A stretch of 64,000 nt of DNA, taken from the NCBI GenBank assembly GCA_020137815.1, contig CM035358.1, positions 4,898,001 through 4,962,000 on the forward strand. Reading direction: 5' to 3'. Numbering within the stretch: position 1 is the stretch's first letter; each line of letters opens with the position of its first letter. The DNA comes from Hormiphora californensis. Its lineage: Eukaryota > Animalia > Ctenophora. Position numbers and translations under genes: made by a program. Shown here in pieces: positions 41,601 through 45,933 of the stretch. A model generated the notes under the pieces. That model searched no databases. It saw nothing but the letters and a program-made list of their open reading frames with translations, and was not told where the DNA came from.

Positions 41601-44600
41601 GAGAAAGTAAAGCTTGGTTAAGTGGGCAATATCTCAACTACTATAGATCATATAAGTGGCAGCTTCCTAGTTCTCCCGTAGTAACCATGGAGAAAAGGGG
41701 GAACACCTAACCAACAAGATCATTTCACTTCAAGAGTTTATTTCTTTTGCTTCTTGTTTGACTTGGAGTTAACATTAATTTTGGTAATTTAACAACAATG
41801 ATTCCAATTCTAGTTACTACCGATGGCTATGATGATAACTATCATATTCATCCTCATCCCACTGGCTGTAGGCAACGACCAGCAGCTCCACCAAGTGACA
41901 ATACGTAACGCTACAGCTAGCTCATCATACGGTATTTACCCTCCAAACTTTGCCATTGATGGTTCAGAATCAACATTTTATCACTCTTTGGAAAGCAGTG
42001 AATCCGAGTGGTTAAAACTGGAGCTGGAAACTAACAGCACGGATATTATCCGGCAAGTTGTCATTATTAACAGGTAAACATATCAGTTGTTATGTTCTAA
42101 CCCCCCTTTTTTACTGGGTGCGGTGAGAGAGGCAACTTATTCGGTACTTTAGCCAATCAACTATTTTTTGGTAAGGGGAGTATACACTGAAAATATCAAA
42201 CAAATCCAAACAAAAACTACATTTCGCAGGCGAGAATATAGTTCAAGTATCCGTGACCGACTGCTTGGAACAACAATCATCCTCCTTGGCACAACAACCA
42301 ATACAACATGTGGGAATATAACAGAAGTCCCCTCAGACTGGATCTCAACAGTGGAGTGCCCTCCTACTGAAGCTGTTGATGGAGTGCTCCTACTAGACGA
42401 GGTTCCTTTATCAGAAAAAATGATTGAGATGAATATTGCAGAAGTAATGGTGTATGCAGAAACAGCGGAAACAGGTAGGTGGATTGTAAATTAGAAACGT
42501 TATTAGTGTTACATCGACAAATAATACTTATTCTTCTCCCCATGGACGCAAATGTTTAATTAAACAAGACTGCACTGACCACTAAATTCCATTCAAGACC
42601 AGTATATTCCAATATCCTCACAGTTAAAATAATTTTAATAAAATATGGCACCCTCCCAAGTCCCAGGTTGTCCTAATTTGGTTATTGATGGTTCAACCAG
42701 CGACACATGGAGCGGTGAAGAAGGAGACGTGGTAACTATAACGTGCCAAAAGAAACATGTTGTAATAGGAAGTGCAGTGATAACATGTCTAGAATCGGGG
42801 AAAACTCCAGAATGGAGTAGTGAGGCTCCTAGTTGCATGAAAACAGGTAATAAACAGGTTAAGTAACGCCAGAAATTTTATCGGTTAAGTTATTTGATAA
42901 TCTGTTATGTTAGTCCGAATTTTGTTGAACCATGTACTGTAATGTGAGCTTCGTGTTGTACTAAAGTAAAGGGACTTTAGTACAACACAGCCCTTCGTTT
43001 GTTGTTGTTGTTTGTTCAAATCTAGAAAGGGGATAATATTGGGCGGTGTGTCCCAGTGTACTCACAAACTGGTGTTGTTGCGATATAATAATTCCTTTTA
43101 AGGAGTTTGTTTTTCAAATTATTTCCAAAAGGAATAATTGTCCCACATGACAGGCAAATGTTTTCAAATTTTACGCAACCGACAACTTTTTCATATCAGT
43201 CACAGACCGACATGACAGGCAACATCTGACGATGTACAACACCGATCACACCGACATCAACCATTAACTAACTAACTAATTAAACATTACTAACTTGTCA
43301 AGCCACTGAATTTTGAAGTAGTTAGGGAGGAGTCGTAGGACAGGTGTGCTGCCCACTACCCAGTGAACATCACCCTTGTTGGGGCGGGGCATGGACATCA
43401 TTCGTGCTACACCCTGGAAAATGTGTTGACGTTGAGTGTTGACGCTAGATCTAAAATGAAGCTCCGATATAAAAAGGTGAGGTGAGTTCAGAGTTATACA
43501 GATCGATCACCTCTCGTATTTCCCCTAAGGCCTAATTCCCCACTAACTCAGCAGTCAGCTCTCCCCTAATCCCCCACCAACCCCTATTAGATCCCCACTA
43601 ACCCCCTGCATTTCTCTTTCATAACCAACCTGGAAAGCGCCGCTTTCTCGAACACTAAAGATCAGGATAACGTGTTTGGTGTGTCTGAATGCTTCAACTA
43701 ACATCGTCTCATTTCGTCGGGGAGTTGCCCACACACTCTGCAAGATAGGGAAATTAGGACTATTGTTCCTATAAGAAGAGAGTTGGACAAGTGAAAATCA
43801 TTTGACATTTGAAATTTGAACTGAATATTTCTGGTGCAAAGAATGAAAATATGTGTGTAACTTGATATTGCATGAAATGTAATCCGTTTTTATTTCACTG
43901 CCAACAATTGTTTTAAAACTTCTAGTGACAATCAGAAATTAAAAAAAAACTCCTCCCGTAGAAGTGTCAAATAATGTTAGTTCTCTGTTTTTCATTTCTC
44001 ATTTAGCCCACATACAAATAGGAACTGTGATGCAACGGGAAACTTTGAAAATCCACTACTGATACATTTCTGAAACAACTCACTATTTTCCATCCGAAAC
44101 GGTCCCATCAAGTACAAACCCTCGATTAAATAGTACATACTCTCAACAGTATCTGGCTTTTTAGCTAGCACAACACCACTCAAAACTTCACAAATCTGAT
44201 GAACTTTCGTCAGTAAAATCCGCTGAATCTCCGAGTGAAGTGCTGGGTTTTTGCCAAGTTTTACTACACACTGAACCACAACCTTCTTTTCCGTTCTGGG
44301 TGCTAGTGAAATATTGATCCCTGTTATTGGGCTTGATACAACATCATCTTCCTCATTTTGTTTTTCCCCTGGACCAGCAACAACCCGATTGGTTGTCATG
44401 ACAGTTAGAAAATCCAATAAAACCTCAGCCAGACTGATCAAATGTTTGGAGTTGGTTTCCGTTAGTTGGATCTTCCGGAATGCCCTGCAGCACTTCTCCA
44501 GAGCTGCCCCAAATGGGACCCAGAAAGATGTCAGGTTGTTGGAGCATATCCTTCAGGTGAATCACAAGGTCTTCAGTTGATGCTGCAAGGGTGCTCGTAT

Positions 44601-45933
44601 CCAGGTTGGGCAGGGACAGAAAGTGAGATGTTGATCGGAGGAAAGTGAGGGCTGTGTCAGTTAGATTGATGTGATGGGGTGTTACAATCATTGGGGAAGG
44701 GGTGGATGAGGAGGAGGATTCTTGGGAGGATGACGTCACACGGAGTGCTGCTGTTTTGTGGAGAAGTTGGAGTCGCTGGACCTCCAACCATCTGATATAT
44801 TTCTCGTCCCGGTGAGTGCGGTGCTCCCACGCTTGGGAGACTGATTTAACCCATAGTTTGAGGGGAATCTCGGGTGGTTTGGAGCGGATAATGGCGATTG
44901 AGATTGCTAGTTTCATTGTGTTTAACTGCCATTCGGCCATGTCTTGCTACTAAGTGAGGTGTGTGTGTGAGCGTGGGAGGAAAAGAGAGATGTACATGCG
45001 ACAACAACAAAACAATAACCAACACAATACATGTATTGTGTTTGTTGCTGTTTTTGCTTTGACCACATGTGATTAAAAAAGGGCATGGCATGACAGGACA
45101 AAGCAAAATGGCTAACTTTATCTTCTTAAATACTCTCCGATGAGCCTTTTTTTAAAAAGCACAAAAAATAATAAGTTACTCACCTTCTCCATGGAGATGT
45201 CAACGTTGTCCTGATTGTTACTTTTAATAACAAAGTATCGGGCATCCAGGTTGTGCCAGTCCGGTTTAGATACTGAAATATAGGGTTTTGTAATATTAGA
45301 GGCGGGGTGTTAGGAGTTGTAGTTGGACTGAATTCGATGTTGAAAGAGTGCACATTGAAGTTAGAGCAATAAATACAATAGAGTATTATTTTCACAAACG
45401 TGAAAATGATTTTATAGACACTAAACAAGTTTTTCTTACATCGTTTGGAGATTGAAGCAGTGCTGGATAGATCACTGGCATAGCTGTTAGATCGAGATCT
45501 ACTGTGTCCTGGTGCGAGGATCTTCTTACGCCCTTTATCCGTCGTTTCTTGGTCTGTACGAAAAAGTATGTCTGGATAAAGTTCAGGTTAATGTTGATAA
45601 CAGAAAGTAGATGAGCTTTAGTTGGCTACTCTAATATGGGGGGAGGGGGCTCTAATTTTTATCATTGTTCATTTTGGATCAAAAATGGATCAAACACATC
45701 TATAGATCACATCAATCAGTTATACCCCACAAAACTATAACACCTCTCTCTATACCTCTCTGACCTGAAGATTCTCCGATAATATCATCACCAAGAATAT
45801 CATCCAGAACCATCTCGGAGTTGGTGTTAACAATATCATTGTCATCGTGCTCAGGATCCATCTCATTATCCTCTTCGTTGACTTCCTCCTTGACTACAGG
45901 CTCCTCCTCTGATTTCATCTCCGTATCTGACAT
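23674..45933 (-). CDS. YTHDC1: YTH domain-containing protein 1 (nuclear m6A reader), 12 exons, ~482 aa
   Basis: Phase-consistent GT-AG exons: 45933-45765, 45553-45440, 45272-45184, 43737-43630, 43413-43295, 41254-41170, 40781-40666, 33017-32842, 32624-32395, 32249-32094, 31929-31912, 23742-23674. YTH motifs DARYFVIKSNNQDNV, SVWAT, VILIFSVRESGAFQG, VHWV, NRWNEYKQVKISRDGQEVEPTC; YTHDC1-type C-terminal DILLHGSYMDYVREY and VDEFL. The last two exons are less certain than the rest. Confidence 0.9.
26395..28157. repeat. ~29-bp minisatellite, ~60 copies, containing the telomeric hexamer CCCTAA
   Basis: Unit CCCTAACCCAGTCTCCAGCATGCCTCTCT with a variable (CT)n length. Confidence 0.95.
29241..30064. 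mobile_element. Non-autonomous DNA transposon with G10-run TIRs and 8-bp TSD (824 bp)
   Basis: TIRs G10-ACATGTTAATT...AATTAACATGT-C10; TSD CTCCATAT at 29233-29240 and 30065-30072; subterminal TGTTAA/TTAACA repeats. Confidence 0.9.
30445..31844 (+). CDS. Divergent class-A (rhodopsin-like) 7TM GPCR, 3 exons, 299 aa, nested antisense in the last YTHDC1 intron
   Basis: Exons 30445-30622, 30715-30872 and 31281-31844 splice in frame (900 nt). Seven hydrophobic segments, TM2 Asp (SIDLVLL), TM3 FCNFHGYLF...LKTVFLAKPF, ECL2 Cys, TM7 GNGVFF and a helix-8-like RKFQKFV. Confidence 0.8.
32719..32797. mobile_element. Mini-MITE of the CTGTCAG family (79 bp) in YTHDC1 intron 8
   Basis: CTGTCAG...CTGACAG termini; perfect 8-bp TSD AGGAGTAT (32711-32718, 32798-32805). 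Confidence 0.85.
33493..38070. repeat. Long inverted repeat: ~1.3-kb arms around a ~930-bp spacer
   Basis: Left arm 33493-35840 (interrupted by the nested element) is a near-identical reverse complement of 36774-38070. Confidence 0.92.
33665..34717. mobile_element. Nested 1053-bp element with G7-run TIRs and 8-bp TSD
   Basis: TIRs GGGGGGGATCCCATGGTATACTTTGG; TSD AATGAATT. The empty site is preserved in the opposite arm near 37890. Subterminal 10-bp GTATACCAAA repeats. Confidence 0.92.
38233..39389. repeat. Palindrome with ~490-bp arms and a 24-nt loop (38880-38903); the left arm has an extra ~160-bp tandem duplication
   Basis: TAGTGCGGTAATATGACG...GGTGCTCAAAAT / ATTTTGAGCACC...CGTCATATTACCGCACTA. 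Confidence 0.9.
39449..39503 (-). mobile_element. Solo Tc1/mariner-pogo-like TIR fragment
   Basis: The minus strand reads TA+CAGTCGGACCCCGATTTA, with three CCCCGATTTA repeats. No partner end found. Confidence 0.45.
41823..42866 (+). CDS. Secreted F-type lectin (fucolectin/discoidin-fold) plus CCP/sushi protein, nested antisense in YTHDC1 intron 5
   Basis: Exons 41823-42073, 42230-42474 and 42667-42846/42866. Signal peptide, then ATASS..AIDG..FYHS..WLKLEL..VVIINR..RL..C..C..IAEVMVY, then a four-Cys sushi repeat with W (C..ITC..GSAVITC..W...PSC). The 3' end is uncertain because of a phase-1 donor at 42847. Confidence 0.8.
43992..44940 (-). CDS. MEI4: MEI4-like meiotic double-strand-break factor; intronless, same-strand nested in YTHDC1 intron 3, with one +1 frame break
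   Basis: The N-terminus WQLNTMKLAISIAIIRSKP followed by a coiled coil matches the recalled MEI4 signature (WYLRTSKLALALAIIRSKP). ORFs 44940-44425 and 44552-43992 overlap; removing one base gives ~315 aa. Confidence 0.72.

Follow-up and report, generated by a model that had tools for sequence, protein, structure and literature searches.

In the ctenophore Hormiphora californensis, 2,357 nested genes have been described in 1,654 host genes, many of them parallel, that is, on the strand of the host, and the text of the genome report leaves their mechanism open (PMC8527503). Trans-splicing of a spliced leader (SL) is widespread in ctenophores, and the SL is found on at least 56% of Hormiphora long reads, according to the same text. 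Elsewhere, the genome report of a glass sponge counts 2,432 nested genes (PMC10282587), and a survey of five bilaterians finds same-strand overlaps under-represented, with 75 nested parallel pairs in human (PMC2330155). In flatworms and urochordates, SL addition at shared acceptors is credited in one account to internal or alternative promoters, shown there for specific genes (PMC12582326). Here we describe a locus in a 64,000-nucleotide (nt) stretch of H. californensis (contig CM035358.1 of GCA_020137815.1, positions 4,898,001 to 4,962,000; hereafter the window), where a single-exon MEI4 gene lies within an intron of the gene for YTHDC1, a nuclear reader of N6-methyladenosine (m6A).

An intact MEI4 gene inside YTHDC1 intron 3

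The host gene and its guest comprise the following features, in window coordinates.

23674..45933, minus strand: YTHDC1 host gene, 13 coding exons, 515 amino acids (aa), located by tblastn with the Mnemiopsis and Bolinopsis YTHDC1 proteins
45184..45272, minus strand: YTHDC1 exon 3, with the onset of the YTH domain and a phase-0 end (tblastn and exon model)
43738..45183, minus strand: YTHDC1 intron 3, which bears MEI4; GT-AG, 1,446 nt, phase 0 (exon model)
43630..43737, minus strand: YTHDC1 exon 4, matching positions 21-56 of Pfam YTH
43992..44940, minus strand: MEI4 coding sequence, single exon, 315 aa after correction of an assembly error (Pfam Mei4, ESM Atlas, and the relative P0002)
44514..44518, minus strand: surplus assembly base in MEI4; DNA runs X1 and X2 lack 44514, and X3, X4, and X5 lack 44518, at full contig depth

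All 12 introns of the 13-exon YTHDC1 model are GT-AG, and its translation contains no internal stops. Likeness to YTHDC1 spans the protein from N- to C-terminus by tblastn, the top named match being a Bolinopsis "YTH domain-containing protein 1-like" protein, and the YTH region is identical to that of the Mnemiopsis and Bolinopsis proteins at 115/132 and 116/132 positions, respectively. The YTH domain starts within exon 3 and extends across exons 4-7, with Pfam YTH matches on exons 4 and 6; the tryptophans that presumably form the m6A cage are encoded in exons 4 and 5. When exon 4 was used as a query, five proteins were returned from five candidates; the named ones, from Mnemiopsis leidyi and Bolinopsis microptera, are YTHDC1-like and both 92% identical over the exon. 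P0003, a 79-aa gene call, matches exon 4 alone and is bounded by the same two splice boundaries. Exons 4 and 5 are joined in one contig of run X8, whose six contigs are all <90% alike to the window and taken to be RNA by guess; their coverage stops short of MEI4 and of the exon 3-4 junction.

Exon model, Pfam, and tblastn agree that the interval 43738-45183, in which the original prediction had placed an intronless, same-strand MEI4-like gene, is exactly intron 3 and splits the YTH domain. The predicted phase-0 end of exon 3 is also borne out. The MEI4 coding sequence lies entirely inside this intron on the host strand, making it a parallel nested gene, and its ATG at 44940 is 243 nt past the exon-3 donor (~240 in the prediction).

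What had been overlooked is a frameshift at 44514-44518, which splits the MEI4 open reading frame (ORF) of the window into two frames (44940-44425 and 44552-43992). All five DNA runs compared, from two samples, have one base fewer than the window at this site; X1-X4 represent one sample, possibly the source of the assembly, and X5 a second sample and study. The frameshift is therefore an assembly artifact. Deletion at either 44514 or 44518 yields the identical 315-aa protein, and the surplus base likely arose when two alleles, distinct at a pair of nearby synonymous sites, were merged. A rare broken allele may exist, as contigs drop rare variants. A small intron or a programmed frameshift, also considered as the source of the break, was ruled out by the contigs of the DNA runs. 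Left uncorrected, the error would make MEI4 look dead.

The corrected gene is intact and under purifying selection. One X5 contig (43593-44991) carries exon 4 together with the whole MEI4 ORF, and an overlapping contig extends through exon 3. All 27 substitutions that separate the window from the X5 contig over 43880-44991 fall inside the ORF, 22 of them synonymous and five replacements (ratio of replacement to synonymous differences per site, pN/pS, 0.07; binomial p = 8e-10). Moreover, P0002, a relative whose frame is uninterrupted, has the same residue as the window protein at 290/315 positions. The window and X5 show zero differences over 44962-45527, which we do not take for constraint, as X5 hardly varies over 45818-46715 either.

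Pfam, AlphaFold, and ESM Atlas support the nested protein as a member of the MEI4 family. The profile search that had been suggested as a check matched the window frame that opens at 44940 (frame A) to Pfam Mei4 (PF13971) with E = 6.7e-08 and 32.8 bits, against a curated cut-off of 25. P0002 is likewise above the cut-off (28.5 bits), and P0018-P0021 are below it (16-24.5 bits); the Pfam match is confined to the N-terminal ~130 aa. Six homologs were found among 50% representatives and six by profile search. The eight homologs other than P0002 are ~34-38% identical to the window MEI4 and carry either no annotation or "hypothetical". Based on eight full-length gene calls on contigs of 99,953 to 1,903,459 nt, inferred to be ctenophore genomic DNA, we infer that MEI4 is single-exon across the group. 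These searches contained no ctenophore MEI4 named as such by NCBI, and the MEI4 cluster members examined included no NCBI accession, a weak absence given that the profile search covered only 7,998 candidates; a full-text literature search for MEI4 with "ctenophor" returned nothing, subscription journals being largely outside its scope.

The AlphaFold model of P0002 is all-helical, with 13 helices, a predicted template modeling score (pTM) of 0.65, and a predicted local distance difference test score (pLDDT) of 70-95 in the core. Low-confidence N-terminal helices are followed by a disordered linker and a confident helical core, which agrees with the MEI4 plan outlined in a preprint, namely N-terminal REC114-binding helices and HEAT-like repeats (bioRxiv 2022.12.16.520760). 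In ESM Atlas, MEI4 and plant MPS1 clusters appear at 0.91-0.94, and the first structural row is a chordate MEI4 (TM 0.52 over residues 51-311). Foldseek against the PDB gave no match at E<=0.001, and the best hit of a PDB sequence search had E = 0.23. The Schizosaccharomyces pombe transcription factor Mei4, a target of the YTH protein Mmi1, is a different protein from this MEI4. The locus adds a ctenophore MEI4 ortholog.

Predicted splice and poly(A) signals of the nested gene

Three features of intron 3 bear on how MEI4 might be expressed.

44951..45183, minus strand: spacer from the exon-3 donor to the first AG, 233 nt; candidate internal promoter/outron or intercistronic region
44943..44990, minus strand: pyrimidine tract and three tandem AGs (ends 44950, 44947, and 44943), the predicted SL acceptor of MEI4
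43889..43894, minus strand: AATAAA, the predicted MEI4 poly(A) signal, 98 nt past the stop and ~150 nt before exon 4

We scored the 82 AGs of intron 3 with an acceptor matrix built from the 11 YTHDC1 acceptors other than that of exon 4. The exon-4 acceptor ranks first (9.2), the first two MEI4 AGs rank seventh and eighth (3.2 and 3.1), and the third scores -3.8. Since 2 of the 12 true YTHDC1 acceptors fall below 3.2 when each is left out in turn, the predicted MEI4 acceptor is weak but usable. The second-ranked AG (9.0), at 43769 (minus strand), lies 31 nt ahead of exon 4 and is a strong cryptic acceptor, the use of which would shift the frame within the YTH domain.

The pyrimidine tract and AG that the original prediction noted before the MEI4 ATG are present, but they are shared with other gene starts in the window rather than specific to this locus. 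An AG ends <=9 nt from the ATG in all seven starts considered (YTHDC1, MEI4, PMS1-like, ASF1, PCYT2-like, flotillin, and a gene with an F5/8 domain). A test for a pyrimidine tract followed by YAG is passed by five of these, the PMS1-like and F5/8 genes failing it, compared with 236 of 2,079 background ATGs (11%; p = 3e-4); with MEI4 left out, four of six pass. The heptamer AGTAGCA occurs nine times in the window and stands ahead of three of the seven starts, including that of YTHDC1; such start contexts may point to a consensus for tandem SL acceptors in H. californensis. The AG cluster before MEI4 is therefore probably best read as an SL acceptor, and its frame with respect to exon 3 then calls for no explanation. 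To that extent, the AG cluster supports the acceptor proposed for an SL-capped MEI4 mRNA, as does the prevalence of SL trans-splicing reported in the text on the Hormiphora genome (PMC8527503). No SL gene end was found in the window, which contains only two one-mismatch matches.

The AATAAA at 43894-43889 is the sole one in intron 3. Between the donor and the acceptor (45183-44951) there is neither AATAAA nor ATTAAA, only the variants GATAAA (45122) and AATACA (45037). Thus, whereas in an SL operon the 3'-end signal of the upstream gene precedes the trans-splice site, the upstream feature here is a splice donor. The spacer also contains a 46-nt inverted repeat (45009-45054; 23-nt arms, 87%), and its predicted fold is no better than that of shuffled sequences (z = -1.24; 24 of 200 shuffles equally good). 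No Rfam match was found within 39000-53000. Another inverted repeat lies in YTHDC1 intron 5 (42953-42988; 15-nt arms, 100%), and the word CCTGTCATG is present in a single copy in intron 3 and in two copies toward the 5' end of intron 5.

Possible routes to a MEI4 mRNA

The explanation we favor, to which we assign about an even chance, is that MEI4 is a nested gene driven by an internal promoter, likely SL trans-spliced and with its own poly(A) signal. In meiotic cells, the MEI4 transcript would be initiated beyond the exon-3 donor. Its acceptor would then have no donor ahead of it, as is usual for SL substrates, and cleavage past the AATAAA would complete a monocistronic MEI4 mRNA. In the host pre-mRNA, splicing from the exon-3 donor would bypass the MEI4 AGs, which are weak, in favor of the intron's strongest acceptor, and the intronic AATAAA would be ignored, probably by way of U1 at the upstream donor, as U1 protects against intronic poly(A) signals in other animals. 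Any coupling of YTHDC1 and MEI4 would then be incidental transcriptional interference rather than a designed switch. In other species MEI4 is meiosis-specific and YTHDC1 is broadly expressed, a difference that separate promoters would explain simply.

The original prediction argued that there is little room for a separate promoter, but this carries little weight. Outrons in C. elegans can be short, with a median of 369 nt and a 10th percentile of 59 in the dataset reported (PMC3730108), and a region just as CpG-poor precedes the other nested gene of the host, which lies antisense within YTHDC1 intron 5. This gene, which is not derivable from host RNA, has 2 CpG in the 250 nt upstream, which is consistent with an internal promoter for MEI4, although it may instead use a CpG-rich patch near 40250-40500. 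Looped enhancers in Mnemiopsis are described as mostly intronic (PMC12221973), so a small core promoter could suffice.

Several observations weigh against an internal promoter. No promoter features were found in the MEI4 spacer, which has 3 CpG in 243 nt and no CGCG or GCGC, compared with 39 CpG in the 1,075 nt that precede YTHDC1/PMS1 and PCYT2, a difference that is not significant (p = 0.066). The spacer is also T-rich, like the operon-like 168-nt spacer between the neighboring PMS1-like and ASF1 genes, and the start contexts of MEI4 (44951-44935, minus strand) and ASF1 (50857-50873, plus strand) are identical at 16/17 nt. Five of the seven starts compared above (all but YTHDC1 and MEI4) were placed by eye from translations, Pfam, and expected N-termini, and the start site, SL, and poly(A) site of MEI4 are predictions from sequence.

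Some of the same observations would fit a promoterless MEI4, released from YTHDC1 pre-mRNA by SL addition at the intronic AG and cleavage at the AATAAA, which we consider a tentative possibility. Release could proceed from the excised intron, so that one transcript gives both mRNAs, or before exon 4 is made, with exons 1-3 serving as a discarded outron; in the latter case, YTHDC1 and MEI4 mRNAs would be mutually exclusive. The short, T-rich, CpG-poor spacer resembles that of PMS1-ASF1, the MEI4 and ASF1 start contexts are the only such sites in the window at <=3 mismatches, a CpG-rich, promoter-like region lies ~1 kb upstream of MEI4, and in flatworm operons SL addition beats cis-splicing at downstream acceptors (PMC12582326). 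However, competition for the AG would come from the unpaired, strong donor that lies 233 nt ahead of it, and the region between them lacks an AATAAA or ATTAAA, unlike in operons, although the PMS1-ASF1 spacer lacks them as well. The CpG density of the spacer is no different from that of 19 small introns (99 CpG in 4,313 nt; p = 0.37), and release would demand a germline-specific choice of SL. If SL release from the host pre-mRNA does occur, it would represent a mode of gene expression beyond classical operons. The more specific proposal of a promoterless "intronic operon" in germ cells, in which each MEI4 mRNA costs one YTHDC1 mRNA, appears unlikely; if correct, it would mean that a nuclear m6A reader is traded for a meiotic break factor, and it could provide a general explanation for many parallel nested genes of ctenophores.

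The remaining alternatives involve cis-splicing of exon 3 to the MEI4 acceptor, for which the outcome depends on the AG: 124 aa with an immediate stop at 44950, a 441-aa fusion at 44947, and a frameshifted 130-aa product at 44943. Joining to 44950 would give a two-ORF mRNA with a 124-aa YTHDC1 stub, a stop, and the MEI4 ATG 6 nt further on, translated by re-initiation. This geometry is seen directly in the sequence, but ribosomes usually re-initiate poorly after an ORF of 124 codons and the AG motif is common to ordinary gene starts in the window, making this route very unlikely. Vertebrate promoter-sharing gene pairs do exist; however, the exons shared by CPNE1 and RBM12 are described as 5' untranslated region (UTR), not coding sequence (PMC2568002).

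Even lower in our estimation, and highly improbable, is a functional 441-aa YTHDC1(N)-MEI4 fusion that uses MEI4 as an alternative last exon and acts as a germline switch. Exon 3 ends in phase 0, the AG at 44947 is in frame, an intronic AATAAA is present, and cis- and trans-splicing widely share acceptors in the flatworms surveyed (PMC12582326). The in-frame fusion foreseen in the original prediction therefore holds for 44947, but not for 44950 (stop) or 44943 (frameshift). Only one of three AGs yields it, as expected by chance, and the 5'-most leads to a stop; neither the fusion protein nor the germline switch finds support. The tandem-AG motif also precedes ASF1 and YTHDC1, where a fusion is irrelevant, and none of the MEI4 homologs compared has a YTHDC1-like N-terminus, these being ORF calls that are blind to spliced fusions. 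Moreover, a cut YTH fragment would precede the N-terminal helix that, in the preprint's structure, enters the REC114 ring (bioRxiv 2022.12.16.520760). Finally, the frameshift in the window might suggest a pseudogene or a misassembled MEI4 copy, but this is barely credible given that the frame is restored in all five runs, that pN/pS is 0.07, and that the X5 contigs link exon 4, the whole ORF, and exon 3.

Neighboring genes and comparison with known systems

Two features flank or accompany the pair.

41823..42866, plus strand: a further nested gene, in YTHDC1 intron 5 and antisense to the host, encoding a hydrophobic N-terminus and F5/8 type C-like and sushi domains
45934..46504, no strand: region between the divergent start codons of YTHDC1 and a PMS1-like gene (PMS1-like by Pfam), 571 nt with 24 CpG

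The intron-5 gene matches Pfam F5_F8_type_C at E = 3e-06, just under the cut-off, and Sushi at E = 9.4e-06. The region 45934-46504 is likely a shared promoter of the head-to-head YTHDC1 and PMS1-like genes and contains several TTGAC repeats. On the other side of the PMS1-like gene, ASF1 starts 168 nt past its stop on the same strand (50699-50868, plus), and the spacer contains neither CpG nor AATAAA. The PMS1-like/ASF1 pair is a candidate SL-resolved operon, and its spacing is operon-like under the 300-nt rule given for flatworms (PMC12582326). PCYT2-like and flotillin form a similar pair, ~620 nt apart (59351-58732, minus strand).

YTHDC1 introns 8 and 12 (6.9 and 8.2 kb) are full of repeats, intron 12 containing a ~1.7-kb tandem repeat of ~26-nt units (26400-28120, minus strand), and a very high-copy repeat lies in an intron of the PMS1-like gene (47100-47500), where the depth of X5 contigs reaches ~480,000. 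Two open frames are without a Pfam match: one of 245 codons (31107-31844, plus strand), antisense in YTHDC1 intron 12, and one of 244 codons (16286-17020, plus strand) with protein-like composition. No transposon was noticed in the short spacers flanking MEI4, for which no formal search was made. Scans for the same nesting elsewhere confirmed no locus among their pattern matches (0/241 and 0/205 in metagenome scans, 0/77 in a genome-contig scan).

The MEI4/YTHDC1 locus is a member of the described class of parallel nested genes of ctenophores. Like the other Hormiphora examples, as their description gives them, it consists of a whole gene within one host intron, on the same strand, in an SL-rich phylum (PMC8527503). 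The YTHDC1 host carries two nested genes, MEI4 and the antisense gene in intron 5. The text of the genome report neither names the pair nor states a mechanism, and its supplementary gene lists may already include it (PMC8527503). With a 233-nt spacer, a probably meiosis-specific guest, and a probably ubiquitous host, the locus offers a compact test case for how same-strand nested genes gain their own mRNA. Within the MEI4/Rec24/MPS1(PRD2) family, the nested protein shares the Pfam N-terminal match, N-terminal helices, disordered linker, and helical core, and its gene differs in having a single exon.

Among systems with a known or proposed mechanism, the cestode and urochordate genes with internal promoters are similar in that an acceptor past a donor undergoes trans-splicing if transcription is initiated between the two; in the cases described, the acceptor lies in the 5' UTR of the same gene, whereas the MEI4 acceptor opens a different gene within a coding intron (PMC12582326). 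The SL operons of nematodes, tunicates, and flatworms, as characterized in the accounts cited, share the short same-strand spacer and the acceptor just before the downstream ATG, but their upstream boundary is the 3' end of a gene rather than a 5' splice donor of the host (PMC7986045, PMC12582326). Human CPNE1/RBM12 likewise involves two unrelated ORFs expressed from one promoter by splice choice; by the published description its shared exons are non-coding, while YTHDC1 exons 1-3, the sharing of which is putative, encode 124 aa (PMC2568002).

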